The notes under the pieces are model-generated. The model ran no database searches. It worked only from the letters and a program-made list of their open reading frames with translations, and was not told the origin of the DNA. DNA of 64,000 nt from Patescibacteria group bacterium. Its GTDB lineage: Bacteria > Patescibacteriota > Patescibacteriia > Patescibacteriales > JAQTRU01. The stretch covers positions 204,731 through 268,730 of the forward strand of contig JBAZPX010000001.1 in the NCBI GenBank assembly GCA_041645555.1, read 5' to 3'. A program made the position numbers and the translations under genes. Shown here piece after piece: positions 4,781 to 61,008 of this stretch; within the stretch, counting starts at the first letter, position 1; each line of letters begins with the position of its first letter.

Positions 4781-6205
4781 ATGGATTTATCCAAGATAAA
4801 AAACATATACATGATCGGCATCAAAGGCGTGGGCATGACTATGCTCGCGCAGTTTTTGGCTGGCAAGGGTTTTTCCGTAAGCGGATCTGATATAAAGGAA
4901 AAATTTATGACGGATGAAGTTTTAAAGGATGCCGGCATAAAAGTGATAGAAGGGTTTTCTAAAGATAATCTTCCGAATGACGTTGATTTAATTATTTATT
5001 CCACGGCCTATAACGGAGAAAACAATGCGGAAGTGGCTAAGGCGCTAGCTGGTAAAACCAAAATCTTAACTTATGCCGAGGCCTTAGCGGAATTTTTTAA
5101 TTCCCATTTTGGCATAGCGGTAATCGGCTCGCACGGTAAAACTACGACCACGGCCTGGCTTGGATTCGTGCTCTCGCAAGCTGGCCTAGAGCCGAACGTT
5201 TTAGTCGGTTCCCGCGTTCCCCAATTTAACGGCTCCAGTCTGGTTGGTAAATCAGATTATTTGGTAGCGGAAATTGATGAATACCAGAATAAGTTTAAAT
5301 ATTTCCAGCCCCGGGCCACAATTCTTACCAATATTGATTATGACCATCCGGATTTTTTCCCGACCAAGCAGGATTATGAAGACGCTTTTATAAAATTTAT
5401 TGAAAAGCTTCCGGCTCGCGGTTTCCTGGTCGCTAATTTTGACGACCCTGCCATACGCAAAACCGTTAATGTCAATTGCCGGGCTAAAGTAATAAGTTAT
5501 GCCTTAAACGAAGTGGCCGATTATGTCGCTTATGATATTAAACAGGGAGCGGGAAAGCAATTTTTTAAAGTTAAGTTCGGTCTGGATGAAGAGGAAGCGG
5601 AAGGAGAAAGAGACGACCTATTGGGAGATTTTTCTATTCAGCTTTCCGGAGCGCATAACGTTTCTAACGCTTTGGCCGTGATTGCGGCAGGGATTGAGCT
5701 GGACGTTCCTTTAAATCTTATCAGGACTTATCTTGAAGAGTTTTCCGGCACGGCCCGGCGCATGCAGGTTTTAGGAGAGTACCGGGGAGCGACGATTATT
5801 GACGATTACGCCCATCACCCCACGGAAATAAAAGCGACCTTGGCCGGCGCCAGGCAGATTTATCCGAATAAAAAAATAATTGTGGTTTTCCATCCTCACA
5901 CTTTTACCCGCACCAAAGCTTTGCTTGATGATTTTTCCAAAAGTTTCGGACAGGCGGATGAAGTGATAGTTTTGGATATTTACGGGTCGGCGAGGGAGAA
6001 ACAAGGCGGGGTTAGCAGTAAAGATGTAGTGGAGAAAATTGGAATCAGGAATCAGGAATCAGGAATTAAGCAAAAATTAAACTATATTTCAACTCTTAGC
6101 GAATGTGAGAAGTATTTGCGGGAGAAGGCGGAGAGGGGAGACGTTATAATTTTAATGGGAGCCGGAGACGTTTTCCGCATCGGGGAGAACTTGGTAAAGG
6201 GCTAA
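4781..6205 (+). CDS. murC: UDP-N-acetylmuramate--L-alanine ligase MurC
   Basis: Mur ligase motifs are present (GIKGVGMT, GSHGKTTTT, DDYAHHPTE). I place the start at the ATG at 4781 (MDLSKIKNIYMIGIKG) rather than the GTG at 4751. Confidence 0.9.
   Translation: MDLSKIKNIYMIGIKGVGMTMLAQFLAGKGFSVSGSDIKEKFMTDEVLKDAGIKVIEGFSKDNLPNDVDLIIYSTAYNGENNAEVAKALAGKTKILTYAEALAEFFNSHFGIAVIGSHGKTTTTAWLGFVLSQAGLEPNVLVGSRVPQFNGSSLVGKSDYLVAEIDEYQNKFKYFQPRATILTNIDYDHPDFFPTKQDYEDAFIKFIEKLPARGFLVANFDDPAIRKTVNVNCRAKVISYALNEVADYVAYDIKQGAGKQFFKVKFGLDEEEAEGERDDLLGDFSIQLSGAHNVSNALAVIAAGIELDVPLNLIRTYLEEFSGTARRMQVLGEYRGATIIDDYAHHPTEIKATLAGARQIYPNKKIIVVFHPHTFTRTKALLDDFSKSFGQADEVIVLDIYGSAREKQGGVSSKDVVEKIGIRNQESGIKQKLNYISTLSECEKYLREKAERGDVIILMGAGDVFRIGENLVKG
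6041..6067 (+). repeat. Heptanucleotide tandem repeat (ggaatca x3 + ggaatt) inside murC
   Basis: Encodes GIRNQESGI, the same unit and frame as murG 1824-1857. Confidence 0.9.
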
Positions 6206-8080: not shown

Positions 8081-8123
8081 CGATTTTAGAATTAAGATTT
8101 TAGAATTAAGATTTAAATAAAAA

Positions 8124-8151: not shown

Positions 8152-8200
8152 GATGGGTCAAGGGCTGGATTTTTATCTGTTTTTTTGGTAAAATTTGTAG

Positions 8201-8235
8201 TAGGATTATTAAGATTTTTGGGATTCTTAGGATTT
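8201..8235. repeat. Intergenic word array (taggatt/aagattt words) upstream of murB
   Basis: taggattattaagatttttgggattcttaggattt. The same word set recurs downstream of murB at 9180-9222. Confidence 0.8.
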
Positions 8236-8237
8236 GT

Positions 8238-9176
8238 ATGGGAAATATTCAAAAAGACATACCTTTAGCCCAGTTTACCACTTTCCGGATTGGCGGGCCG
8301 GCTAAGTTTTTTATTGAAGTAAAAGAGAAAGATAATTTGCTGGAGGCGATAAAATGGGCTAAGGAGAGTAAAGAAAAATTTTATATTTTGGGCGGGGGCA
8401 GCAATATAATAATAAACGATAAGGGAGTTGACGGTTTAGTGATAAAAATGGCTAATGATAATATTACGGTTCATGGCGAAAGAATGGAGACCGGAGCCGG
8501 AGCGACTTTAGCCCGGGCTGTGCTCCTCGCCACTGGTGAAAATTTGTCCGGTTTGGAATGGGCGGCCGGCATTCCCAGAGCGACAATCGGCGGAGCGATT
8601 CGGGGAAATGCCGGCGCTTTTAGCTTGTCTATGGCTGAAGTAGCGGAGACGGTTGAAGTCTTTAATGTTAAAAAGGAAAAATTTGAATTATTCAGCCATA
8701 AAGACTGCCGGTTTGATTATCGCGAAAGTATTTTTAAGAAAGATAATAGTTATTTAATTTGGAACGTTGTTCTCAAACTGGAAAAGGGAAATAAAATCCA
8801 GATTCAATCCGCGGTAAATAAATTTTTAGAATCAAGGCAGAGCCGGCAGCCAAAACTTCCCAGCGCCGGTTCGGTTTTTAAAAATTTGCCGCTTGATTAT
8901 TTAAAAGAGAACAATGCGAACATAGCGGACTTAGCCAACAAGGCCGGCGTTGTTAAAGAAGGCAAAGTCGGAGCCGGCTGGCTGATAGAGCTGGCTGGGC
9001 TTAAGGGCAAAAAAATCGGGGGAGCAAAAGTGAGCTTAGAGCACGCTAATTTTATTGTTAACACCAGCCAAGCCACGGCCGAAGATATTGTGATGCTAAT
9101 TAGTTATATTAAGCAGCAAGTCAGGAACAGGTTTAATATCCAGTTGCAGGAAGAAGTACAGTATTTAGGGTTTTGA
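8238..9176 (+). CDS. murB: UDP-N-acetylenolpyruvoylglucosamine reductase MurB
   Basis: FAD-binding N-terminus (FTTFRIGGPAKFF, LGGGSNII) and C-terminal MurB motifs (PSAGSVFKNL, HANFIVN). Confidence 0.9.
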   Translation: MGNIQKDIPLAQFTTFRIGGPAKFFIEVKEKDNLLEAIKWAKESKEKFYILGGGSNIIINDKGVDGLVIKMANDNITVHGERMETGAGATLARAVLLATGENLSGLEWAAGIPRATIGGAIRGNAGAFSLSMAEVAETVEVFNVKKEKFELFSHKDCRFDYRESIFKKDNSYLIWNVVLKLEKGNKIQIQSAVNKFLESRQSRQPKLPSAGSVFKNLPLDYLKENNANIADLANKAGVVKEGKVGAGWLIELAGLKGKKIGGAKVSLEHANFIVNTSQATAEDIVMLISYIKQQVRNRFNIQLQEEVQYLGF

Positions 9177-9179
9177 GGC

Positions 9180-9222
9180 GGGATTCTTGAGATTATTAAG
9201 ATCTTTAGGATCCTTAGGATTT
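9180..9222. repeat. Intergenic word array (period about 9, gattcttRa / ctttaggat)
   Basis: gggattcttgagattattaagatctttaggatccttaggattt, read directly from the sequence. Confidence 0.8.
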
Positions 9223-9239
9223 AATTTTCTAAATTTTTG

Positions 9240-9263
9240 CAGGGCAGGATAGCCCTGTTTTTT
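9240..9263 (+). terminator. Rho-independent terminator after murB
   Basis: cagggc...gccctg hairpin followed by tttttt. Confidence 0.65.
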
Positions 9264-12956: not shown

Positions 12957-13049
12957 ATAAATTTACGAATTTGCTAATTTTAGGGTTGGTATTTAGTGAT
13001 TAGCCGTGGGTTTATTATATAGATAACCTTTATTTTTGATATAATAATT

Positions 13050-13117
13050 TTTAATTTCCGAATTTTTAATTCCGGATTTTCGGAATTGAAAATTGTGAAT
13101 TGAAAATTGAAAATTGG
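13050..13117. repeat. Intergenic word array (aattccg/gaaaatt, period 7) with internal inverted repeats
   Basis: ttaatttccgaatttttaattccggattttcggaattgaaaattgtgaattgaaaattgaaaattgg. Confidence 0.8.
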
Positions 13118-14594: not shown

Positions 14595-14664
14595 GGGATT
14601 CTTGAGACTCTTAGGATTATTAGGATAGTGTTATTTTCAAAATCCTAATCCCGAGTACTCGGGA
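14595..14664. repeat. Intergenic word array plus 16-nt perfect palindrome tcccgagtactcggga
   Basis: gggattcttgagactcttaggattattaggat faces aaaatcctaatcc. The palindrome with its flank (tcccgagtactcgggactaa) is repeated at 23132-23151. Confidence 0.8.
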
Positions 14665-14688
14665 CTAAAGATCCCATAGTTTAACCTT

Positions 14689-21012: not shown

Positions 21013-21155
21013 AACTACGAATTATCACCGCCTAGGCGGGATCCCGCTAGCAATAAATAATAAGGAGCGGGACAAATCCGCTACGAATTTACGAATTTTG
21101 GCAGAAAAAGTTCATTCAGTATTCGTAAATTTGTAATAAATTTGTAATTCGTAGG
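21013..21155. repeat. Intergenic word array (ctacgaatt / aattcgtag words) with embedded GC hairpins
   Basis: ctacgaatt...ctacgaatttacgaatttt faces tattcgtaaatttgtaataaatttgtaattcgtag. Internal hairpins ccgcctaggcgg and atcccgct...agcggga. Confidence 0.75.
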
Positions 21156-22703: not shown

Positions 22704-23057
22704 ATGCTGAGAGAAAAAGGGCCGGATATGCCTTCCGGCAAAGAAGAATGGAGGAGAGAGTTAGAATTAAGACGCCAAGGTTTAGATCAAGCAGATCAGG
22801 AGTTATTAAAGAATAGCAGTCCGGCCAATTCAGAAGTTCATAATAAACATTGGAAGACGTTTAACAGGGTAATAACTATTGATACTTTTTTGGAGCCGGG
22901 CAATAGTGGGTTAAGCCGGGACGAACTAATGGAAAAAGTTCATAGTAATATGGGCACCGCGTTTATTAAAAGTGTGTTTGAAGAAGAGATGGATGAAATA
23001 GAGAAAGTGTCAGGGATGGAGAAGGATGAAATAGAGAAAATAAGAGACGTCGCTTAA
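22704..23057 (+). CDS. Hypothetical acidic protein (117 aa)
   Basis: ORF only; no motif recognised. Confidence 0.45.
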   Translation: MLREKGPDMPSGKEEWRRELELRRQGLDQADQELLKNSSPANSEVHNKHWKTFNRVITIDTFLEPGNSGLSRDELMEKVHSNMGTAFIKSVFEEEMDEIEKVSGMEKDEIEKIRDVA

Positions 23058-23079
23058 TAAAATTTATTATAATTTATCC

Positions 23080-23270
23080 AAGAGGCGATTGCCGTGGTTA
23101 CCAGCCATGGTGTTACGTAAGCTACGTAATATCCCGAGTACTCGGGACTAAGCCAAGAGGGTAAAGAAAGAGTGGTCTTGTTTCTAGCGAGACAATCTGG
23201 GTGGAACCGCGGAATTAAAAACTCCGTCCCGGTGTGTTAAATTATTTTAATACATTGAGGCGGGGTTTTT
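23080..23270 (+). promoter_or_regulatory. T-box riboswitch-like leader (antiterminator/terminator switch) upstream of GNAT-thrS
   Basis: T-box core GGGTGGAACCGCGG at 23199-23212. Canonical antiterminator: helix A1 cuggg/cccgg, 7-nt bulge UGGAACC, helix A2 gcgg/ccgu. Competing terminator cuccguccc (23222-23230) with gaggcgggg (23257-23265) plus U5. Stem-III-like hairpin gtcttg/cgagac just 5' of the core. TATAAT at 23068-23073. The Stem I region is atypical. Confidence 0.7.
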
Positions 23271-27073: not shown

Positions 27074-28126
27074 ATGGAAATAAACAAAAGGCCAATTAAT
27101 ATTAATATTTCCACCGTCACCATTTTAAAAACCATTCTTATTATATTAGCGCTTTATTTTTTTTATCTGGTAAGAGATATTTTGGTCATTATTTTCATTT
27201 CTTTAATACTGTCCAGCGCTCTTGAGCCGTGGATTAATTGGATGCATAAGAAAAAAATACCCCGCGGGATAGGCATTATTATCATTTATTTTTCTTTATT
27301 TATCATTGTCAGCTCCGCTTTTTATCTTATTATTCCGCCGATTGTGGCTCAAGTTAAAGAATTATCGGTAACTTTTCCCTACTACCTAGAAAAAGTAATT
27401 TCCGGGGTTTCCGCTTTAAAAGAGTATGCTAGCCAGCATGGCGTTTTAGACAATCTCAAAGGCAGTTTAGACGCTTTCGCCGCTAACTTAGAGGGAGCGG
27501 CCGGCGGAGTTTTTTCTACCGTTTCCGGAATCGTGGGCGGTGTTCTTTCTTTTTTTCTGATTTTAGTCATGACTTTTTACATGGTGGTTGAGGAAAGCGC
27601 GATGAAAAAAATTATCTGGTCAGTGGCGCCGGAAGAGTATCAGCCTTATATTATGCAGCTTATCAGCCGGATGCAAGGGAAAATCGGCTTGTGGCTCCGC
27701 GGCCAGTTAATTCTTTCCTTGATAATATTCACTTTAACATTTCTAGGGCTTTCTATCTTAGGGGTAAATTACGCTTTGACTTTAGCTTTAATCGCCGGGC
27801 TGACCGAATTTATCCCTTACTTGGGGCCGATCTTGGCGTCTATCCCGGCCATATTTTTGGCTTTTACCCAGTCGCCTATGCTCGCTTTATTTACTTTAGG
27901 CCTTTATTATATTATTCAAATGATGGAGAACCACATTATTGTGCCGAAATTAATGCAAAAAGTGGTGGGTTTGAACCCGATTGTGAGCATTGTGGTTTTA
28001 TTGGTAGGGTTTAAAGTCGGCGGTATTGTCGGAGCGATTCTGTCCCTGCCAGTCGCCACCGCTATCGGCGTTTTTTTGAAGGATTTATTTGAAGGGAAAG
28101 GAGTGAGGGAGGATGTCGCAAAATAA
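27074..28126 (+). CDS. AI-2E family transporter (PerM/UPF0118)
   Basis: Polytopic membrane protein with the family motif LTEFIPYLGPILASIPAIFLA. Confidence 0.8.
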   Translation: MEINKRPININISTVTILKTILIILALYFFYLVRDILVIIFISLILSSALEPWINWMHKKKIPRGIGIIIIYFSLFIIVSSAFYLIIPPIVAQVKELSVTFPYYLEKVISGVSALKEYASQHGVLDNLKGSLDAFAANLEGAAGGVFSTVSGIVGGVLSFFLILVMTFYMVVEESAMKKIIWSVAPEEYQPYIMQLISRMQGKIGLWLRGQLILSLIIFTLTFLGLSILGVNYALTLALIAGLTEFIPYLGPILASIPAIFLAFTQSPMLALFTLGLYYIIQMMENHIIVPKLMQKVVGLNPIVSIVVLLVGFKVGGIVGAILSLPVATAIGVFLKDLFEGKGVREDVAK

Positions 28127-28270
28127 AATTCCTAATTCACCTAATTCACCTAATATCTAATTTCTAATAAAATTCCTAATTCAAAAATTTCTAATGCCAA
28201 AAAATTTTTAATTTAAGAATTAGGCATTAAAATTTTTATTAGGAATTAGGTGAATTAGAAATTAGGAATT
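28127..28270. repeat. Long imperfect palindrome built from cctaatt/aattagg words
   Basis: The left arm aattcctaattcacctaattcacctaat... mirrors the right arm ...attaggaattaggtgaattagaaattaggaatt. The centre is near 28210. Confidence 0.85.
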
Positions 28271-30575: not shown

Positions 30576-30620
30576 GGACTAGTTAATTAGGTATTAGGTT
30601 TTAGGTGTTAGTTTATTTTT

Positions 30621-30742
30621 TTGTCATCTCGAGCGTAGCGAGAAATCTGTAATATCCTGCGAACGATAAGGACAAAGTGTTATTGCCGTTATTCGCGTAT
30701 TATAGATTTCTCTCCCGAGTGCTCTCGGGATCGAAATGACAA
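30621..30742. mobile_element. MITE-like non-coding element, family 1 (second copy)
   Basis: Same termini and internal blocks as 684-822. Confidence 0.7.
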
Positions 30743-30788
30743 GGGGTAGCGGCGATGTACTGAAATAGAGACTAAAAAATTTACAAAT

Positions 30789-34625: not shown

Positions 34626-34757
34626 ATTAATCTCGCTTTCAAATAGAGTGAATGTGAATGTACAAAAAAGCCAAAATCCCTCTTTAGTTTGGCTTTGTTA
34701 GATTTTTAACTTTATTCTGAATTCTGCATTCTTAAATCTGAATTCTGCATTCCGATG

Positions 34758-34841
34758 TGCCCAGGGAGAGAATCGAACTCTCATGGACTTGCGTCCACAC
34801 GATTTTGAGTCGTGCGCGTCTACCAGTTCCGCCACCAGGGC
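34758..34841 (-). tRNA. tRNA-Leu (anticodon CAA), class II with long variable arm; CCA not encoded
   Basis: Minus strand reads GCCCTGGTGGCGGAACTGGTAGACGCGCACGACTCAAAATCGTGTGGACGCAAGTCCATGAGAGTTCGATTCTCTCCCTGGGCA. T-arm GAGAG-TTCGATT-CTCTC, anticodon loop CTCAAAA, one U-U mismatch in the acceptor stem. Confidence 0.85.
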
Positions 34842-35037
34842 CTTTTGATTTTAGATTTTAGATTTTAGGATTACTCCTCTTTTTAAGCCATTGGAGATGT
34901 GAATAAAAATGGGCTTTAAGCCCTTTCACAATAGTTTGGCTGTTTTCAGTATAATAAAATTAGATTAAATTGTCAAAACGGTGCGGATAAGTTATAATAA
35001 TGGGGTAATACCAAAAAGTTCAAATGGCAAAATCAAA

Positions 35038-35427
35038 ATGACAAATCAAATCCAAATGGCAAATGATAGAATAAATAATAGGATATATGATTTAGAAGAG
35101 AGGACAGCGAGAGTTGGAGAGGATTTGATAGAATTTGCAAAAAAATTAGAAAAGAATTCGATTAATAATCCATTAATTAGCCAAGTAGTCAGATCGGGCA
35201 CGAGTATGGGAGCTAATTATATGGAGGCTGATTGCGCAGATTCTAAGAAAGATTTCATTTATAAAATTTCTTTGTGTAAGAAAGAATCTAAAGAGACTTG
35301 CCATTGGTTAAGGATGATTGCTAAAGCGAATCCAGAATGCCTTAATCAATGTCGGAAATTATGGCAAGAATCCCATGAATTAACTTTAATTTTTTCTAAA
35401 ATAATATTATCCAGTAAAAGTAAATGA
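35038..35427 (+). CDS. Four-helix-bundle protein (23S rRNA intervening-sequence protein family)
   Basis: Family motifs RSGTSMGANYMEA and KDFIYKISLCKKESKETCHWLRMI. The start is uncertain (35038 or 35056) because the 5' end lies in a word array. Confidence 0.75.
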   Translation: MTNQIQMANDRINNRIYDLEERTARVGEDLIEFAKKLEKNSINNPLISQVVRSGTSMGANYMEADCADSKKDFIYKISLCKKESKETCHWLRMIAKANPECLNQCRKLWQESHELTLIFSKIILSSKSK

Positions 35428-35485
35428 TTTTTTAATTTTTTGATTTGGCATTGATTTGACATTAGGATTTTGACATTAATTAAGT

Positions 35486-36250: not shown

Positions 36251-36262
36251 AATGTAGTATTT

Positions 36263-36340
36263 GGGATTTTTAGGATTTTTACGATTCTTGAGATTCTTAA
36301 GATCCTAATAATCCCAAGAATCCTAAGAATCACAATAATC
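36263..36340. repeat. Intergenic period-9 word palindrome (gattcttRa / aatcctaag)
   Basis: gggatttttaggatttttacgattcttgagattcttaagatcc faces aatcccaagaatcctaagaatcacaataatc. Confidence 0.85.
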
Positions 36341-36360
36341 TTATTTTAACATTTTAAATT

Positions 36361-37242: not shown

Positions 37243-37332
37243 TATAAAAACAAAATAATAAGATAATATAAAAAGAGCCGTCTGTTAAGGCGGTTTTCTT
37301 TTAGGAAGTTAAAAGTTTATAAAGTTAAATTG

Positions 37333-37418
37333 TGGGATCTTTAGGATTCTTACGATTTTTGGGATTCTTGGGATTTTTTAAAAACTCTATCTTAAGAATC
37401 CTAAGAATCTCAAGAATC
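37333..37418. repeat. Intergenic period-9 word palindrome (same word family as 36263-36340)
   Basis: gggatctttaggattcttacgatttttgggattcttgggatt faces cttaagaatcctaagaatctcaagaatcc. Confidence 0.85.
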
Positions 37419-37476
37419 CATAGGGAGAAAAGCGTTAGGTGTTATACGTTATGCGAAGGTATGTTATAATATAGGC

Positions 37477-38643
37477 ATGCAAAAAAATAAAGAAAAAACA
37501 AAGCGCATCGGCATTGACGCCCGCTTTTATGGTCCGATTGGCAAAGGTTTAGGCCGGTATACTAAAGAAGTTGTGGATAAGGTAGTGGCTTTAGACAGAG
37601 AGAATGAATATGTAATTTTTTTAAGCAATGAAAATTTTAGTGAGTTTGTTTCTGGCAATCCGAAAGTGAAAAAGGTTTTGGCCGATGTGCATTGGTATAC
37701 TTTAGCCGAGCAAATCATTATGCCTTATTTAATTTGGCGGGCGCATTTGGATTTAATGCATTTTCCCCATTTTAACGTGCCGGTCCTGACGCCGGTTAAA
37801 TTTGTCGTTACTATCCATGATTTAATTTTAACGAAATTTCCCACCGTTCGGGCTACGACTTTAAGCCCGCTTTTTTATAAAATAAAAAACCGGATTTATC
37901 GGATGGTTATTTGGCTGGCAATAAAGAGAGCTAAAACCGTCATTGCCGTATCGCAATTTACTAAAGATGATATTGCCGGGCAGTTTAAGATCAAGCCGGA
38001 AAAAGTGGTTGTTACCCACGAAGGAGTTTCCAGTTTGCTTAATAGAAAGTCAGATGATTTTCCCCATGACAAAGAAACGCCTTTAGGTTATAATATAGGC
38101 AGCCCCTTCTTACTTTACGTGGGCAATGCTTATCCTCATAAGAATTTAGAAGGGTTGGTTAAGGTTTTTTCTGTTATCCATGGGAAAAGGTCTGATTTGA
38201 GTTTAATTTTAGTCGGCAGACAGGATTATTTTTATAAGCGGGTCAAAGAGTTTACGGAAAAATATTGGGGTGAAAAAAGTCCGGTGGTTTTTCCCGGCTT
38301 TGTGCCTGATAGGAATCTGAAGCTTTTATATGGCCAGGCCTTGGCTTATGTGTTTCCTTCGTTTTATGAAGGTTTTGGCCTGCCACCCTTAGAAGCGATG
38401 GCTTGCGGCTGCCCGGTGGCAAGCTCTAATAAATCCAGCTTGCCGGAAATTTTAGGAGAAGCGGCAATTTATTTTAATCCGGAAGATGAGAAAGAAATGA
38501 CGAGGCAGATTGAGAAGATTGTAGGGGATGAAAATCTGCGGCAGGAATTGACAAAAAAAGGTTATGAACAAGTAAAAAAATATAGCTGGGAGAAATGCGC
38601 GAAGGAGACTTTAGAAGTTTATAGAGAAGTTTTTAAGAAGTGA
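37477..38643 (+). CDS. Glycosyltransferase family 4 (GT-B, GT1 clan)
   Basis: EGFGLPPLEAMACGCPV motif. TGTTATAAT extended -10 ends only 6 nt before the ATG. Confidence 0.85.
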   Translation: MQKNKEKTKRIGIDARFYGPIGKGLGRYTKEVVDKVVALDRENEYVIFLSNENFSEFVSGNPKVKKVLADVHWYTLAEQIIMPYLIWRAHLDLMHFPHFNVPVLTPVKFVVTIHDLILTKFPTVRATTLSPLFYKIKNRIYRMVIWLAIKRAKTVIAVSQFTKDDIAGQFKIKPEKVVVTHEGVSSLLNRKSDDFPHDKETPLGYNIGSPFLLYVGNAYPHKNLEGLVKVFSVIHGKRSDLSLILVGRQDYFYKRVKEFTEKYWGEKSPVVFPGFVPDRNLKLLYGQALAYVFPSFYEGFGLPPLEAMACGCPVASSNKSSLPEILGEAAIYFNPEDEKEMTRQIEKIVGDENLRQELTKKGYEQVKKYSWEKCAKETLEVYREVFKK

Positions 38644-43835: not shown

Positions 43836-43848
43836 AAAATTTTTTTCT

Positions 43849-44250
43849 GTCATTGCGAGTCCCGAAGCCTCGGGACGAAGCAATCTCTGGTTAAATAGAA
43901 AAACATGTTAAACGAACGATACTATTTTGTTTATATAAACACCAATAAAACCCACAACGTTTTTTATACCGGAGTGACCAATAATTTATTAAATAGGAAT
44001 TACCAGCATAAGAGCAAAGAGAATAAATTAAATTTCACAGCCAAATATAAGGTAAATAAATTAGTCTATTGCGAGACGTTTTCCGATATCCGTGATGCCA
44101 TTGCCAGAGAAAAGCAAATCAAAGGTGGTTCCAGAAAAGATAAAATCAACCTTATAATTAAATTAAACCCGGAGTGGAAAGATTTAAGCTTGGATATGTA
44201 AAACCAGAGATTGCTTCGTCTCCCGCCTCGGCGGGATCCTCGCAATGACA
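43849..44250 (+). mobile_element. IR-bounded element carrying a GIY-YIG nuclease gene
   Basis: The left arm tgtcattgcgag...cgaagcaatctctggtt is the reverse complement of the right arm aaccagagattgcttcg...ctcgcaatgaca. The ORF stop abuts the right arm. Confidence 0.75.
43905..44201 (+). CDS. GIY-YIG nuclease family protein (98 aa)
   Basis: YFVYINTNKTHNVFYTGVTNNLLNRNYQHK matches the GIY-(X)n-YIG pattern, with REKQIKGGSRKDK at the C-terminus. Confidence 0.85.
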   Translation: MLNERYYFVYINTNKTHNVFYTGVTNNLLNRNYQHKSKENKLNFTAKYKVNKLVYCETFSDIRDAIAREKQIKGGSRKDKINLIIKLNPEWKDLSLDM

Positions 44251-45277: not shown

Positions 45278-45313
45278 GTAATAATAAGTGCAAAAATTAA
45301 AAGAGCTTCCTTT

Positions 45314-45514
45314 TGTCATTGCGAGGAAGGAGTTCCACAGAATTGCGGGACGACTGACGAAGCAATCTAAGGTTAGCTGGAAGTAACAAGAAAATTAAAA
45401 AACATCATTTTATCCGAATAAATACTAATGATAGACATTTAACAGAATCAGACTTTATACCTTTAAACCAGAGATTGCTTCGGCTCCCGCCTCGGCGGGA
45501 TCCTCGCAATGACA
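45314..45514 (+). mobile_element. ORF-less derivative of the GIY-YIG element
   Basis: The right arm at 45466-45514 differs at 1 of 49 nt from 44202-44250. The left arm starts tgtcattgcgag...gaagcaatctaaggtt. The interior is only ~90 nt. Confidence 0.7.
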
Positions 45515-47561: not shown

Positions 47562-47633
47562 AGAATTTTTAATTTTATAATTTTCAATTTTTAAACAATT
47601 TTCAATGGTTTAATTTTTAATTTTTAATTCTCT

Positions 47634-52982: not shown

Positions 52983-53074
52983 AAGATTTAAGAATTATGA
53001 ATTATGAATAAAGTGAAAATAGAATCAAAAAAATTAACTTATCATTCTTAAATCTTAATTCTAAATTCTTAATT
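52983..53074. repeat. Intergenic word palindrome (aagaatt/aattctt words)
   Basis: aagatttaagaattatgaattatgaata faces tatcattcttaaatcttaattctaaattcttaa. Confidence 0.8.
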
Positions 53075-54201: not shown

Positions 54202-55356
54202 ATGAAAATCGGCATTGATATAAGAACTTTAATGGAAAAGGAATATAGCGGCGTGTCAGAGTACACGCTTAATTTAGTTAAGGCGATTTTAGAGCAAGAC
54301 AGGGAAAACGAATATAAATTATTTTATAATTCCGGCCGGAATATAAGCGGGAGAATGCCCGAATTCAAATATAAGAATGCGCAAGTAGTTAGTACTCACT
54401 ATCCCAATAAGATATTCAATTATTTAATGCAGAAAACTTTGCGGCAGCCGAAGGTTGACCAGCTGCTTGGCGTGGACGTTTTTTGGCTGCCAAACCTTAA
54501 TTTTATTTCCCTGTCCCCTAAAGCGAAAAAAATACTAACTGTGCACGACTTGTCTTTTCTCCGTTATCCCGATTTTTTTAGCTTGCGGAGAAATTTGTGG
54601 CATTATATAATTGACATTAAGAAACTGATAAGAGAGTCTGATGAGATTATAGCGGTTTCAGAAAATACAAAAAATGATATAATAGAGCTGGGAGAAATCA
54701 GCGAAAAGAAAGTGAAAACCATTTATTCCGGTGTCGCCGAAGAATTCGGGGTTATTGATAAAAATAACGAGGCCCTCCGGGAGGTTAAGGAAAAATATAA
54801 TTTGGCGGATAAATTTATTTTATTTTTGGGGACGCAAGAGCCGCGCAAGAATATTATCGGTTTGATAAAAGCTTATAATGAATTTAGGAAGAATCGGGCC
54901 GGCGGGAAGGAGGAGGTAGAATTGGTAATAGTCGGCGGTAAGGGCTGGAAAGAAAAGGGAGTCGTGAATGAGTGGAAGAAATCAAAATACCAAGGGGATA
55001 TAAAATTTTTAAATTATATTCCCCGCCAAGACAAAGTTTATCTTTATAATTTAGCCACAGTTTTCGTTTACCCCTCGTTTTATGAAGGATTTGGCTTGCC
55101 GCCCTTAGAAGCTATGGCCTGCGGGCTGCCGACCATAGTCGGTTTTTCTTCCAGTCTGCCGGAAGTGGCCGGCGGTGCGTCTTTGTTGGTTGATCCGTAT
55201 AAACCTCAAGAGATCGCTCAGGCGATAGAGAAAATTTTGTCAGACGGCAATCTTAAAAATAATTTAATAGAAAAGGGCAAGGCGAAAGCTTCAGAATTCA
55301 GCTGGCAGAAAGCGGCAGGGGAATATCTTGATGTTTTTAGAGAATTTTCAAAATAA
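54202..55356 (+). CDS. Glycosyltransferase family 4
   Basis: EGFGLPPLEAMACGLPTIV motif. The ATG at 54202 is preceded by AGGAAGGAGG. The upstream extension from 53989 overlaps the previous gene. Confidence 0.85.
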   Translation: MKIGIDIRTLMEKEYSGVSEYTLNLVKAILEQDRENEYKLFYNSGRNISGRMPEFKYKNAQVVSTHYPNKIFNYLMQKTLRQPKVDQLLGVDVFWLPNLNFISLSPKAKKILTVHDLSFLRYPDFFSLRRNLWHYIIDIKKLIRESDEIIAVSENTKNDIIELGEISEKKVKTIYSGVAEEFGVIDKNNEALREVKEKYNLADKFILFLGTQEPRKNIIGLIKAYNEFRKNRAGGKEEVELVIVGGKGWKEKGVVNEWKKSKYQGDIKFLNYIPRQDKVYLYNLATVFVYPSFYEGFGLPPLEAMACGLPTIVGFSSSLPEVAGGASLLVDPYKPQEIAQAIEKILSDGNLKNNLIEKGKAKASEFSWQKAAGEYLDVFREFSK

Positions 55357-55441
55357 TAAAATAACAAAATAATAAAATAATATAAAAAGTAGTAGAAGGT
55401 ATTCCCACTGAATTTTTAAATTATTTTATTATCTTATTTTT
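55354..55441. repeat. Intergenic word palindrome (aataaaataa words)
   Basis: aataaaataacaaaataataaaataatataaaaag faces tttttaaattattttattatcttattttt. A related string lies at 37243-37275. Confidence 0.75.
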
Positions 55442-57904: not shown

Positions 57905-58024
57905 GTGATAGATTTTAGTAATTAGGTTTTAGATATTAGTCAATAATAAAAGGCGTTTTAATTATAAAGAACGTCTTTTATTATTGGAGTTGATGAAAGA
58001 GATAAATACGGATATAATTCAATT

Positions 58025-59278
58025 ATGGCTGAAACAAAAAACAAAAAAATTATTATGGCGATGTCCCCGCGCAAATCCCTTCGGGATTCTGCGGGGCAAG
58101 CTGGCGGCAATAAAAAAAAGCACATAATTATAGCGATGTCGGGCGGAGTTGATTCTTCGGTGGCTGCAAAATTATTAAAGGACCAGGGGCATGACCTTTT
58201 GGGAATCTTTTTGCATTTCTGGAAGGATGAAAATAATCCCCCTAACCCCCTTTATCAAGGGGGTGCGGCAGAGAATAAATGCTGTTCGCTTGAAGCTTTA
58301 ATGGACGCCAGACGGGTTTGCTCCAATATCGGCATACCTTTCTATACCCTGAATTTCAGCAGTATTTTTAAAAAAGAGGTGGTCGATGACTTTCTTGATG
58401 AATATAAAAAGGGCAATACTCCTAATCCCTGTATCCGTTGCAACAAATTGGTTAAGCTGGGTTTGCTTGTCGAGCGAGCGAAAAAATTAGGGTTTGACTA
58501 TGTGGCCAGCGGCCACTATGTGAAAAACCAAAAACCAAAAACCAAAAACCAAAAATATAAATTATATAGAGCGAAAGATAAGAACAAAGACCAATCATAT
58601 TTTTTATACACTCTGACGCAAGAGCAATTGGAACATCTGCTTTTCCCTTTGGGGAATTATATAAAAGAGGGGGTGAGAAAAATAGCCGGAGCTTCCGGTC
58701 TGCCGGTGGCAGCGAAAAAAGAAAGCCAGGAAATTTGTTTTATTTCCGGCAAAAGCCACAATGATTTTTTAAAAAGATATCTTAAATTAAAACCGGGGCC
58801 AATAAAACTATTACCTCACCCTGGCCCTCTCCTAATTAGGAGAGGGGAGGAGCTCCGCCAGCCGGCGGAGCGAAGGGGTGAGGTAATTGGTAAGCACCAG
58901 GGTCTGCCTCTTTATACCATCGGCCAAAGGAAGGGAGTGGAGATCGGAGGTGTCGGCCCGTTTTATGTAGCTAAATGCGATTATAAAAGCAATACTTTGT
59001 ATGTGGTGAAGGACGGCGATGACCCGGCTCTGTATGATAGTAAACTAATAGCCGGCAATGTCAACTGGATAGCCGGGCAAGAGCCAAAAATACCTCTTAC
59101 CTGCGAAGCGGTAATCAGATATAGGCACAAACCCACGAAGTGTAAAGTTACAAAGTCAAAAGTTAAAAGTAGTTATATAGTAAAATTTAAAAAGCCGCAG
59201 AGGGCGATTACGCCTGGGCAAAGCGTAGTTTTTTATAAGAAAGATGAGGTTTTGGGCGGCGGGGTTATTAGTCCTTAG
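58025..59278 (+). CDS. mnmA: tRNA 2-thiouridine(34) synthase MnmA, carrying several in-frame insertions
   Basis: PP-loop AMSGGVDSS, NPCIRCN, SGHYV, KDQSYFLY, QEICF, HQGLPLYTIGQRKG and C-terminal ITPGQSVVFY all align with E. coli MnmA. Confidence 0.9.
   Translation: MAETKNKKIIMAMSPRKSLRDSAGQAGGNKKKHIIIAMSGGVDSSVAAKLLKDQGHDLLGIFLHFWKDENNPPNPLYQGGAAENKCCSLEALMDARRVCSNIGIPFYTLNFSSIFKKEVVDDFLDEYKKGNTPNPCIRCNKLVKLGLLVERAKKLGFDYVASGHYVKNQKPKTKNQKYKLYRAKDKNKDQSYFLYTLTQEQLEHLLFPLGNYIKEGVRKIAGASGLPVAAKKESQEICFISGKSHNDFLKRYLKLKPGPIKLLPHPGPLLIRRGEELRQPAERRGEVIGKHQGLPLYTIGQRKGVEIGGVGPFYVAKCDYKSNTLYVVKDGDDPALYDSKLIAGNVNWIAGQEPKIPLTCEAVIRYRHKPTKCKVTKSKVKSSYIVKFKKPQRAITPGQSVVFYKKDEVLGGGVISP
58810..58887 (+). 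repeat. 78-nt element bounded by perfect 12-nt inverted repeats, in frame inside mnmA
   Basis: attacctcaccc ... gggtgaggtaat, with internal hairpin gccctctcctaattaggagagggg. It replaces ~5 residues of the E. coli alignment with 26 residues. Confidence 0.75.
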
Positions 59279-59344
59279 GTGTTAGCTTTTAGCTTCTAGA
59301 GCGGTATTTTGTATCTCTATTGTTTTATGGTATAATATTATTAT

Positions 59345-59442
59345 TAAGATTCTTAAGACTCTTGGGATATTTATGATTTTTGAGAAACTCGGAACTTTGA
59401 AATCCTAAGAATCTTAAGAATCGCGATAATCCTAAAAATCTC
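59345..59442. repeat. Period-9 word palindrome between an extended -10 element (59327-59335) and the first Cys-rich paralog
   Basis: aagattcttaagactcttgggat ... aaatcctaagaatcttaagaatcgcgataatcc. TGGTATAAT lies just upstream, so the palindrome is probably in the 5' UTR. Confidence 0.8.
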
Positions 59443-59457
59443 AAATAAAAATTCCCC

Positions 59458-61008
59458 ATGCTTCCAAAAAAATTCTCTCTACTTCTAATCTTCTCTATTA
59501 TCCTAACCCTAGGCCTATCCATATCCCTGGGTTCTCTTTTGGCGGCCTGGACGGCCCCGGCTTCTAGTCCTCCGGAAGGTAATATTGCCGCCCCGATTAA
59601 TACGGGCGCGACTTTACAAGCAAAACAAGTCGGTTTGTGGCTTAACTATTTACCATTGGATGAGGGTGGTAGCGCCAACGGTTTACTTGTCCAATATGGC
59701 AATGTCGGCATTGGCACAACCACCCCCCAAGCTAAATTAGAAGTGGTAGGCAATATTATTGCTGATGCCCCAACGGCCAGTAATGAAGTAGCGACAAAAG
59801 GATATGTGGACGCATCGGGAGGCAGCGCCGGTCTTGATCAATATTATGAATCCTGGTGCGCGGCTCACCAAGGCCAGAAATGCGCGCGAAGCGGAACTAT
59901 GGATTATAAATGTATGGGTGATTTCTGCACTAAAGCCGGTATTTCCAATGATATGGATGAAGATGGAGTTACGGGAGCGACTGATTGCAATGACAGTCCT
60001 GGGAGTGGCTCGACCATCGGCGCGGCGGCTGACGGCACTTGCGATGGTGACGCGGATGGCAAAATTGACGTATCCGCCTATCTCACTACTCCCAAGCCGG
60101 CCGAGGCTGATTGTTACGACAGTAATCCGGCCAAATATTCTTGTTTGAGCAATGGCACGACTTGCAGCAGCGGAATTTATTGCGCTTCCACTTATTGCGT
60201 AGATGGATATTGTTGCGAGAGCACCTGCACCGGCCAGACTTGTCAGACTTGCGGAATCTATTCCAGCGCCGGAGCTGGTAAGTGCGGTTATGTAAATAAT
60301 TCTTTGCAAGATCCGCATAATAACTGCAGCCAAGGCTCAACGGCCAGTGATGGGTGCAGTTCTAATAATTGCAGCGGTACTGGCTATTCTTGCGGCACGC
60401 CGCAAACTTCAGGATATGGCGGTTGCCCAACATGTGGATATTGTAATGGCGCGAGCATTGCTTGCACGGCTTATATTAATGGTTTTTATGACTCCAGGTT
60501 GCAGGGATGCAAAACCTGTAATGGAACCATAGGAGGTTTTAATACTATGCCCGATACTAATTGGGGCGCTAACCAATATAACTGTGCTGGTTCCTCTTCC
60601 CGTTGCGTTTCCGGAAATTGCCGGGCTTGTGACGGTTATCTTTATAGCGATGGTTGCAATGGTTGTGCGGGCCAGGGCGGACAAGCCTGTTGGCGCGCTA
60701 TAATGCAAGGATCATGCGATGATAGTTGTAATAACTATGGCGGCTGTATCGCGGGAGGATGGAATGATGATGCTAGCTGTTCAGTTTGCAAGCACATAGA
60801 ACCCGCTGCTACAGAATGTATAACTCATCAGTATGATTTTTTCCCTGCCAATTATTATTATAATTTTAGTTACGGTTCCAGCACTAAATACTGCTATCGA
60901 AGGGATACTGCCCAGACTCCCAATATTAATTGTAGTCTTTCCGTAAGCCCTTATTGTTCCGGAGCGGGGTGCAGTGGATACATAAGGTTATGTGTGTGTA
61001 AGTGGTAA
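59458..61008 (+). CDS. Membrane-anchored cysteine-rich surface protein, paralog 1
   Basis: Signal anchor LLLIFSIILTLGLSISLGSLLAAW, then the conserved block TAPASSPPEGNIAAPIN...GNVGIGTTTPQAKLEVVGN, then a Cys-rich C-terminus. Confidence 0.85.
   Translation: MLPKKFSLLLIFSIILTLGLSISLGSLLAAWTAPASSPPEGNIAAPINTGATLQAKQVGLWLNYLPLDEGGSANGLLVQYGNVGIGTTTPQAKLEVVGNIIADAPTASNEVATKGYVDASGGSAGLDQYYESWCAAHQGQKCARSGTMDYKCMGDFCTKAGISNDMDEDGVTGATDCNDSPGSGSTIGAAADGTCDGDADGKIDVSAYLTTPKPAEADCYDSNPAKYSCLSNGTTCSSGIYCASTYCVDGYCCESTCTGQTCQTCGIYSSAGAGKCGYVNNSLQDPHNNCSQGSTASDGCSSNNCSGTGYSCGTPQTSGYGGCPTCGYCNGASIACTAYINGFYDSRLQGCKTCNGTIGGFNTMPDTNWGANQYNCAGSSSRCVSGNCRACDGYLYSDGCNGCAGQGGQACWRAIMQGSCDDSCNNYGGCIAGGWNDDASCSVCKHIEPAATECITHQYDFFPANYYYNFSYGSSTKYCYRRDTAQTPNINCSLSVSPYCSGAGCSGYIRLCVCKW

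Follow-up and report, generated by a model that had tools for sequence, protein, structure and literature searches.

The DNA analyzed here, referred to as the window, is a 64,000-nt chromosomal stretch of a Patescibacteria group bacterium (contig JBAZPX010000001.1, positions 204,731 to 268,730). Its G+C content is ~41%, the plus strand carries nearly all of its genes, and the cumulative GC skew climbs monotonically. The genes are of the housekeeping type, including ftsW, murG, a Mur ligase gene, murB, bacA, dnaE, thrS, parA, parB, glycosyltransferase genes, tgt, and mnmA, and the RNAs found are RNase P RNA and one tRNA (Rfam, gathering threshold). The nearest named proteins are from Patescibacteria, and the nearest named lineage is Candidatus Falkowbacteria, with a ParB identity of ~65%. 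Most plus-strand genes are without a Shine-Dalgarno sequence, and in several cases a TATAAT box is situated a few nucleotides from the ATG. Our subject is the spacers between these genes, many of which hold tandem arrays of 7- to 9-nt words, and above all the focal spacer at 28127-28270, between the genes for an AI-2E transporter and a TPR protein. Two independent assemblies (ENA and Logan) match the window at 100% identity over 7.0 kb and 1.6 kb, in stretches that include both the focal spacer and the parA-parB spacer, and the structures are therefore not assembly artifacts. Sequence of the window is present in ENA ERZ27249422 and SRA SRR8449827.

The focal spacer is built from two inverted word arrays:
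28127-28202, plus strand: left arm of the palindrome, CTAATTY-type words of 7 to 9 nt
28210-28270, plus strand: right arm, RAATTAG words

The left arm begins 1 nt past the AI-2E transporter stop codon (28124-28126) and the right arm ends 16 nt before the TPR-gene ATG (28287), with no Shine-Dalgarno sequence in between. The whole spacer folds as one long imperfect hairpin with a minimum free energy of -46.1 kcal/mol, compared with -16.5±3.2 for shuffles (z -9.2; 0 of 200 shuffles as stable); here and below, hairpin significance is the minimum free energy set against 200 dinucleotide-preserving shuffles and given as z. The opposite strand folds about as well (z -8.9). When the arms are aligned, their variant words follow one and the same irregular order, the pattern to be expected of one inverted duplication. 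Searching the region against Rfam at E values up to 1 gave only chance matches to plant miRNA hairpins.

The focal spacer belongs to a set of real, nonrandom, and fast-evolving short-unit arrays that are concentrated at gene ends, are characteristic of this Patescibacteria clade, and often stand in inverted pairs folding into long hairpins. Tandem arrays of 7- to 9-nt words make up 14.6% of the noncoding bases of the window versus 1.4% of the coding bases, and there are 33 intergenic arrays (1121 nt) where dinucleotide shuffles give 4.4±1.8 (108±46 nt), such that shuffled sequence reproduces neither the arrays nor the focal hairpin. Periods of 7 and 9 predominate (Tandem Repeats Finder). There are more than 10 word families in this one genome, all AT-rich and without four G-tracts, and different spacers use different words, as the initial annotation, made from the sequence alone, had observed. 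Its statement that nearly every spacer is a long palindrome was too strong: of the 44 spacers measuring 20 nt or more, 25 contain one or more arrays and about nine contain a hairpin. Arms measure 25 to 75 nt, mostly 30 to 45, rather than the 40 to 70 nt it proposed. Among the 14 spacers it listed as word palindromes, seven have folds far more stable than those of their shuffles (z -3.2 to -9.2) and two are marginal; the other five (8083-8115, 8201-8235, 9180-9222, 47562-47630, and the pair flanking tRNA-Leu) are direct arrays only. Where two arrays of the same family share a spacer they are inverted in eight cases and direct in one or two by our count, and convergent inverted pairs occur in about eight or nine spacers.

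The arrays lie closer to genes than the spacers themselves impose. Twenty-one of 36 are within 10 nt of a gene end, whereas placing arrays at random in those spacers gives 8.1±2.2; gene starts were taken from the longest open reading frames (ORFs), which may inflate proximity on the start side and leaves the stop side unaffected. Thirty of the 36 are in spacers between two plus-strand genes, though almost all of the window is so arranged. Arrays beginning 1 to 10 nt past a stop codon are those at 8082, 9180, 28131, 30586, 36260, 47564, 52988, and 57909, and several arrays end 1 to 17 nt before an ATG without a Shine-Dalgarno sequence. Two arrays begin a few nucleotides from a transcription start predicted from TGnTAtAAT boxes: an extended -10 box TGGTATAAT at 59328-59336 is just upstream of the stem starting at 59340, which bears out the promoter-like sequence reported earlier for that spacer, and TGGTAAAAT at 8186-8194 is upstream of the array starting at 8201. 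These promoter calls were read by eye, and the scan tool, which needs a -35 hexamer, does not list either box. The layout of a stem at a predicted start is repeated in L142 and L145 (L-numbers denote loci of relatives), where the stems end a few nucleotides before the ATG.

We note that leaderless-type starts, with TATAAT 6 to 10 nt from the ATG, are seen for several genes (e.g., those starting at 37477, 58025, 4214, and 61033), and that strong AGGAGG sites precede several minus-strand genes. Mimicry of the anti-Shine-Dalgarno sequence by the words was considered and dropped, there being weak AGGA or AGGT matches only, and an excess of G over C in arrays that follow stop codons (eight of nine) was set aside, as the plus strand has positive GC skew anyway.

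The other spacers with palindromic or partly palindromic arrays are as follows:
13046-13117, plus strand: palindrome of AATTTTT and GAATTGA-type 7-nt words (z -4.5)
14595-14664, plus strand: four direct 9-mer words after a stop codon, followed by a brief stretch of reverse complement and by a small CCCGAGTACTCGGG hairpin (z -2.0)
21013-21155, plus strand: composite structure after dnaE (z -7.0)
36263-36343, plus strand: palindrome of the parA-parB spacer, 9-mer RRGATTNTT, with arms 36263-36302 and 36303-36343 and no loop (z -3.9 for 36263-36340)
37334-37421, plus strand: palindrome downstream of parB, same 9-mer family, with arms 37334-37378 and 37389-37421 (z -7.0 for 37333-37419)
52983-53074, plus strand: weak palindrome with TTATGAA on the left and ATTCTTA on the right (z -2.2; 4 of 200 shuffles as stable)
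55350-55441, plus strand: palindrome in which one arm consists of A-rich words (AAAATAAT) and the other is T-rich (z -3.2)
59340-59445, plus strand: 9-mer palindrome in a predicted 5' untranslated region (UTR), before the ATG at 59458 (z -6.5)

In the structure after dnaE, nested GC-rich hairpins stand beside TACGAATT words and the reverse complements of these words (21072-21096 and 21121-21145). The palindromes at 52983-53074 and 55350-55441 each reach from the stop codon of the gene before to the start codon of the gene after. The palindrome at 37334-37421 has a terminator-like hairpin on one side (~37275-37300) and, on the other, a TGTTATAAT box directly next to the ATG at 37477. Arrays in direct orientation occupy further spacers:
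8082-8114, plus strand: GATTTTAGAATTAA repeated 2.4 times with 100% matches, 1 nt past the stop codon of an ABC-transporter gene, with no palindrome
8201-8235, plus strand: 9-mer repeated 3.9 times, filling the predicted murB 5' UTR up to the ATG at 8238
9180-9222, plus strand: 9-mer array beginning 3 nt past the murB stop codon
30586-30611, plus strand: TTAGGTN repeated 3.7 times, 10 nt past the TPR-gene stop codon, with TAG every 7 nt
34714-34752, plus strand: ATTCTGN repeated 5.6 times, adjoining tRNA-Leu (minus strand, 34757-34841)
34843-34868, plus strand: GATTTTA repeated 3.7 times, on the opposite side of tRNA-Leu
47564-47629, plus strand: AATTTTN repeated 9.6 times, occupying the whole spacer before tgt and forming no hairpin (z +1.5)
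57909-57939, plus strand: TAGATTT and TAGNNNN words, 4 nt past a stop codon

One 9-mer family, RRGATTNTT, is found at six loci (8201, 9180, 14595, 36263, 37333, and 59345), in agreement with the initial annotation, and as described there it flanks murB on both sides in direct orientation, the copies at 8201-8235 and 9180-9222 being 90.6% identical over 32 nt. The word TTAGGAT has 10 copies in 8.1 kb of noncoding DNA and three in 55.9 kb of coding DNA, a 20-fold noncoding enrichment. The arrays on the two sides of tRNA-Leu use different words, and pairing between leader and trailer is not significant (z -0.87). Word stems are long and AT-rich, and separate GC-rich terminators adjoin some of them (e.g., 9239-9258, next to the array after murB), which upholds the earlier distinction between the two and rules out intrinsic terminators as an identity for the arrays.

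Two side observations concern sequences close to these arrays. An identical 21-nt stretch with the palindrome CCCGAGTACTCGGG is present in two unrelated spacers (14648-14668 and 23131-23151). A T-box leader lies at 23004-23234 on the plus strand, upstream of a GNAT gene and thrS (45.8 bits, E 3.5e-9); its score is below the Rfam gathering score of 93 and the default scan hence missed it, and an apparent equivalent at L008:797-1066 has the GGGTGGAACCGCG motif in common with it.

Heptamer arrays are also present within genes and in frame:
1200-1232, 1631-1665, and 1825-1857: murG arrays of CGGAYKT (4.7 copies), TCAGATT (5 copies), and GGAATCA (4.7 copies); the second, on the plus strand, is a perfect repeat encoding VRFQISDFRFQI
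6041-6066: Mur ligase gene array of GGAATCA (3.7 copies)
58523-58555: mnmA array of AAAAACC (4.7 copies)

These arrays are perfect or near perfect and encode insertions of 9 to 12 residues, VRFQISDFRFQI and GIRNQESGIRN among them. When 19 MurG proteins are aligned, the same sites hold peptides of 7-residue periodicity that differ in sequence and length, including VRFQISDFRFQI, IQLSINNYQLSI, VGFRMSDFGCRISDVGFRMSDVGFRMSDFG, GIRNQESGIRN, and ITNYKLQITN. A single base separates the window's TCAGATT from the TCGGATK-type word that the MurG peptide repeats of relatives imply, which fits mutation followed by homogenization. Because perfect arrays occur inside genes, the generator acts genome-wide and regardless of function, with selection filtering which arrays persist.

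A further arrangement places an ORF within a word stem beside parA:
35023-35057, plus strand: left inverted arm of AAATCAAAATGACAAAT words, bracketing an ORF of the 23S_rRNA_IVP family (Pfam) and pairing with 35443-35477
35443-35477, plus strand: right inverted arm, ending 8 nt before the parA ATG

The arms are 35 nt long, 83% complementary, and 385 nt apart. Two relatives (L005:6524-6972 and L008:9542-9995) have an IVP-family ORF between parA and parB instead, inside inverted arms of 31 to 33 nt made of other words. The window and L005 proteins, which are Avd-like, are different, non-orthologous paralogues at 36% identity, and this weakens relocation of a single IVP cassette as an explanation. 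23S rRNA intervening sequences have the same form, with a PF05635 ORF looped between long inverted repeats that make up a stem (e.g., in Coxiella, PMC4990558); those are inserted in helix 25 or 45 of 23S rRNA, whereas the present elements are in mRNA spacers beside parA and parB and their stems are composed of tandem words.

Relatives show how quickly the words and hairpins turn over. Syntenic loci were fetched at ParB identities from 94% down to 61%, with AI-2E orthologues at 84-91%, and the AI-2E to TPR spacer takes these forms:
Window: 160 nt, CTAATTY words
L177 and L178: the same palindrome with one word fewer and an altered center
L179: 157 nt, unrelated TTTTCAA and TTGAAAA words (z -2.8)
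L180: 108 nt, A-rich and T-rich words around AAAAAATATTTTTT (z -2.6)
L003 and L004: 21 nt, with little beyond the mini-palindrome AAAAAATATTTTTT
L008: 38 nt, no repeat

No individual hairpin is thus indispensable, since the orthologous focal spacer of a close relative is 21 nt long and has no word palindrome. The AI-2E stop codon present in the window (within the region 28110-28140) has been lost in two relatives of 90-91% identity (L177:1200-1310 and L178:1430-1549), where the ORF reads eight codons into the word array, which provides the new stop. The spacer between parA and parB carries the 9-mer in the window, AAAAATC plus a nested hairpin of GC-rich sequence in L003 and L135, CACAAAT in L136, and other words in L139 and L141, and it is short in L137, L140, L143, and L146. 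The palindrome downstream of parB is kept in L005-7, L131, and L148 with word-level changes: its right arm has three words in the window and four in L005-7, the word order differs between L005 and L007 despite an identical ParB protein, and the left arm is homogenized in L148. The orthologues of the direct array at 30586-30611 consist of TTAGGTN words in L005 and TAGTATN words in L003. Alleles differ by single words, confirming that the words expand and contract between strains. Arrays make up 10-34% of non-ORF DNA in most loci with a ParB identity of at least 63% and ~0-9% in loci at 35-40%. Because orthologous spacers have different words, different copy numbers, or nothing, the phenomenon is clade-wide and the individual arrays are short-lived.

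Beyond these syntenic loci, an exact search of species-representative genomes with a 32-nt piece of the parA-parB palindrome gave no match. A degenerate three-word pattern scan was too permissive, with many coding peptide repeats among the matches listed. Also among these matches are word palindromes of the GGATTNTT family and other 7- to 9-nt arrays in non-ORF DNA of distant phyla, namely Chitinophagales (L089:2815-2915), Bacteroidota (L013:1198-1437), Ignavibacteriae (L123), and a single gammaproteobacterial metagenome-assembled genome (L113:1150-1280 and L124:2296-2465), as well as word palindromes in other Patescibacteria.

The same loci contain other small palindromic elements and ORFs. 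Hairpins of a GC-rich family (TGTCATTGCGAG ... CGAAGCAATCT) are at 43847-43895, 44202-44250, 45313-45370, and 45466-45514; they flank a small GIY-YIG ORF (43905-44201), and two copies are 98% identical over 49 nt. Elements of ~125 to 145 nt with inverted ends TTGTCATCTCGA ... TCGAAATGACAA are present in the window at 682-824 and 30622-30745 and in a relative (L005:1955-2100), with an internal TATTATAGATTTCTC motif in common and z values of about -5 to -6 for the host spacers. A 42-nt GC-rich hairpin (ACCTGCCCGCC...GGCAGGCGGGT) just after the parB stop codon is present in L005 (7872-7913) and L006 and absent in the window (37243) and L007; it thus varies between strains with identical ParB and looks like a separate small mobile palindrome, and similar GC-rich hairpins sit at the center of word palindromes in L003 and L135. 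Lastly, L007:7546-7761 is an extra small GIY-YIG ORF after the glycosyltransferase gene that is absent from L005 and L006, in which ParB is identical.

The initial annotation did not recognize a described repeat class in these spacers, and this has to be revised, as heptamer arrays, including convergent inverted pairs, are documented (PMC4692102, PMC4679880). We are confident that the repeats are of the STRR or LSSR5-11 type, i.e., long simple-sequence-repeat arrays, here tandem 7- and 9-bp words with an origin in slippage: tandem units are in excess, the excess is noncoding, the location is at ORF ends, inverted pairs are present, and relatives vary. They have no G-rich, quadruplex-capable, genome-specific word, which is a trait of the described examples and not of the LSSR category. 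In the best described examples, Xanthomonas genomes have ~185 GGGAATC arrays each and Nostoc has GGGGA(C/T)T arrays (Rehm et al. 2015, PMC4692102), the latter being the cyanobacterial STRR repeats of Mazel et al. 1990 as that paper cites them. Those heptamers are strongly intergenic, mostly between co-oriented ORFs and within ~50 bp of a stop or start; they prefer about four units and form 70 to 75 convergent inverted pairs per genome with stem-loop potential; their length and sequence differ between close species, and their function is not established (PMC4692102). The window has in common with them the intergenic tandem heptamers near ORF ends, a usual length of about four units, the convergent inverted pairs, and the variation between close species. 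It differs in having more than 10 AT-rich families that allow no G-quadruplex, where Xanthomonas and Nostoc have essentially one G-rich, quadruplex-capable word, in having 9-nt as well as 7-nt units, and in that its inverted pairs often extend over the entire spacer, from the stop codon to the start codon.

TAACTGA arrays of two to six copies are found a few nucleotides before Shine-Dalgarno-poor starts in marine Beggiatoaceae, cyanobacteria, and Bacteroidetes (MacGregor 2015, PMC4679880). Like these, the present heptamer arrays abut starts without a Shine-Dalgarno sequence, lie in some cases inside ORFs, and are patchy across phyla; unlike these, which have one word and one indirect repeat in 170 sets, they use many words and their inverted pairs are common. 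LSSR5-11 as defined by Mrazek et al. (2007) are reported to be mostly noncoding, with heptamers most abundant and slippage proposed as their origin (as cited in PMC4679880 and PMC4692102), and to be linked to large genomes (as cited in PMC4679880), while the organism here is a member of the Patescibacteria with a small genome. LSSR5-11 is a statistical category and, as so relayed, its definition includes neither a hairpin arrangement nor stop-to-start bridging, both of which are seen here. There is no Rfam family match to the word arrays. Several resemblances to other elements were also dropped: an origin or DnaA boxes (the GC skew is monotonic and the arrays are scattered over 60 kb), DNA uptake sequences (which are not tandem, and the arrays are not of one word), GANTC or GATC methylation sites (absent from most words), and telomere-like or tRNA T-arm-like sequences (coincidental).

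The best overall reading, which we favor tentatively and with slightly less than even confidence, is that the arrays are products of slippage whose role, if they have one, is that of generic RNA stem-loops at the boundaries of cistrons. Replication slippage would create the arrays, homogenize them, and alter their copy number at a pace exceeding that of change in the flanking genes. The arrays accumulate at gene boundaries, and opposite arrays of the same family in one spacer are predicted to form a long imperfect hairpin. The second arm probably comes from the first by an inverted duplication, folded back at a small AT palindrome, with later decay through slippage. The arrays would presumably be transcribed as 3' UTR, intercistronic, or 5' UTR sequence and in that form may serve solely as generic RNA stem-loops, irrespective of sequence. 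A double-stranded stem of 25 to 60 bp is a natural substrate of RNase III and also protects RNA ends. As such substrates, the stems would cut polycistronic transcripts into units and leave short AU-rich leaders without a Shine-Dalgarno sequence, and cutting of this kind would suit a genome with mostly Shine-Dalgarno-less genes or leaderless-type promoters. RNase III excises 23S rRNA intervening sequences at the stem, and by analogy the IVP-family ORFs set in word stems may be a precedent of a processed stem. The RNA stem-loop role taken by itself is a possibility that we place distinctly below an even call, and each individual hairpin is dispensable. Of the roles suggested in the initial annotation (insulator, RNA stability, translation control, or recombination), the results favor no particular one.

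A serious rival, though a somewhat unlikely one in our judgment, is that the arrays are a nonfunctional by-product, in which 7- to 9-nt slippage, together with fold-back or template-switch duplication at AT-rich mini-palindromes, fills tolerant DNA, selection only removes harmful arrays, and the hairpins are useless. A number of results weigh against the stem-loop role, and much of what weighs against it favors a by-product. Absence of the structure from close relatives, which the initial annotation took as an argument against function, is partly what is found: the hairpin is missing from the orthologous spacers of L003 and L004 (21 nt) and L008 (38 nt), with palindromes of the same or unrelated words in L177 to L180. 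A sense-strand signature was sought in the palindromic spacers, and the plus-strand fold is the more stable in seven and the minus-strand fold in six, with no bias in G-U pairs. Arms of the 9-mer palindromes match their own partners with local alignment scores of 22, 19, and 17 and the arms of other loci with scores of 18 to 28, their complementarity following from the word core common to both arms, and arm alignments of these three palindromes reveal no locus-specific compensatory evolution. The palindrome at 37334-37421 may be little transcribed, being between a terminator-like hairpin and the next promoter. Arrays are found inside essential genes, such that a purely mutational account may suffice, and the perfect arrays of murG, the Mur ligase gene, and mnmA are what a by-product would leave. 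The irregular word order of the focal arms, as from one inverted duplication, points the same way, as does the mini-palindrome AAAAAATATTTTTT, which is central in both the short and the expanded versions of the spacer. Set against a by-product are the hugging of stop and start codons by the arrays, far beyond random placement, the independent recurrence of palindromes at the same spacers in many lineages, the coincidence of stems with predicted transcript starts, and the cost that useless long stems between co-transcribed genes should carry.

Two further RNA-level proposals are improbable. The first is that the arrays are protein-binding platforms on mRNA, the words recruiting S1, a cold-shock protein, or a CsrA-like protein for translation of genes without a Shine-Dalgarno sequence, as proposed earlier for the Beggiatoaceae TAACTGA repeats (PMC4679880). 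Array ends 1 to 17 nt before such start codons, the single direct array that makes up the murB 5' UTR, and the GGA within some words (AGGAUU) are all in keeping with it, but more than 10 unrelated word families argue against one sequence-specific binder, words that are base-paired in palindromes are not available to single-strand binders, and arrays follow stop codons about as often as they precede start codons. The second, to which we give just as little credence, is that the hairpins are a maintained device of Shine-Dalgarno-poor Patescibacteria that replaces Shine-Dalgarno-based coupling. Hairpin-seeded palindrome growth would write matched arrays from a stop codon to the next start codon, and the stem would either bring the terminating ribosome to the downstream AUG in a shunt-like manner or be cut by RNase III to give near-leaderless mRNAs; Avd-like proteins of the IVP family, encoded inside such stems, would belong to the same system.

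Action at the DNA level, as cruciforms, phased sites for nucleoid or replication proteins, or recombination substrates that move cassettes, is less probable again. Folds are equally stable on both strands, one palindrome is in a probably untranscribed gap, inverted arrays bracket parB and IVP-family ORFs, and the position of the IVP-family ORF differs between lineages, all of which is in keeping with such a role. The spacers have no binding consensus in common, however, a period of 7 or 9 bp is not helically phased, ORF scans of the window found no candidate binding protein, and the paralogy of the window and L005 IVP genes means that one cassette has not simply moved.

The REP and BIME sequences of enterobacteria are intergenic imperfect palindromes, often within operons, whose RNA stem-loops stabilize upstream mRNA; REP has one consensus of 35 to 40 nt genome-wide and is mobilized by RAYT transposases. 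That the present arrays are miniature mobile palindromes of this kind, or like MITEs (miniature inverted-repeat transposable elements), perhaps as remnants of IVP-gene cassettes, is very doubtful. Three 9-mer palindromes (36259-36340, 37329-37418, and 59344-59422) do align end to end at 75-78% identity, and the left arms at 36263 and 37334 have their variant words in the same order, with the rare ACGATT word third in both; ~78% is, however, the identity of any two arrays of one 9-mer family with seven fixed positions. A 140-nt element in the window is absent in L003, and similar word palindromes are in other phyla (among the matches listed). Against mobility, the six 9-mer loci have no common boundaries, no terminal inverted repeats distinct from the body, and no target-site duplications, and an all-against-all blastn comparison of the spacers found word-level similarity only, with no common consensus such as that of REP and with arms made of tandem short words. 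Pfam scans of ORFs in the 64-kb window found no RAYT (Y1) or other transposase and no reverse transcriptase, and MITEs proper are ruled out by the lack of fixed ends and target-site duplications and by alleles that differ by single words.

Guide-RNA arrays of a CRISPR-like or TIGR-Tas-like system are effectively refuted by the architecture: TIGR systems occur in Patescibacteria with short repeats of 8-12 nt and, in some, palindromic stems (PMC12045711; bioRxiv 10.64898/2026.09.09.750476), but their arrays are organized in dual-spacer units of 36 nt that carry box C/D motifs and adjoin a Tas gene (PMC12045711), whereas the units here are contiguous, 7 to 9 nt long, and without spacers (excluding CRISPR, as the initial annotation had concluded), show no 36-nt period or dual-repeat unit in the Tandem Repeats Finder and repeat output and no box C/D layout, and are short and scattered among housekeeping genes rather than beside one effector gene, with no Nop-domain protein by Pfam among the ORFs scanned, although ~12 ORFs lack a Pfam match and a divergent Tas could escape among them, Tas proteins having been discovered through structure mining.

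Tandem arrays of 5- to 11-nt units at gene ends have been reported for 35 years, first in cyanobacteria and later in Xanthomonas, Beggiatoaceae, and Bacteroidetes, and the class is still without an established function or generating mechanism. The intergenic heptamers of cyanobacteria, Xanthomonas, and Beggiatoa are thus already known, described and never explained, and what is new here is the phylum, together with the large number of AT-rich word families, units of 9 nt, and the in-frame heptamers in MurG, the Mur ligase, and MnmA. This clade is an unusually dense and diverse case, with arrays making up ~15% of the noncoding DNA and many families in one genome. As its words are AT-rich and have no G-quadruplex capacity, G-quadruplex formation cannot be a general explanation for the class, and because many metagenomic relatives are available at graded distances, the birth, growth, homogenization, and loss of arrays can be read from alignments. 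For annotation, the arrays explain long spacers without Shine-Dalgarno sequences, spurious ORF extensions, and variable peptide insertions in the proteins of candidate-phyla-radiation bacteria.

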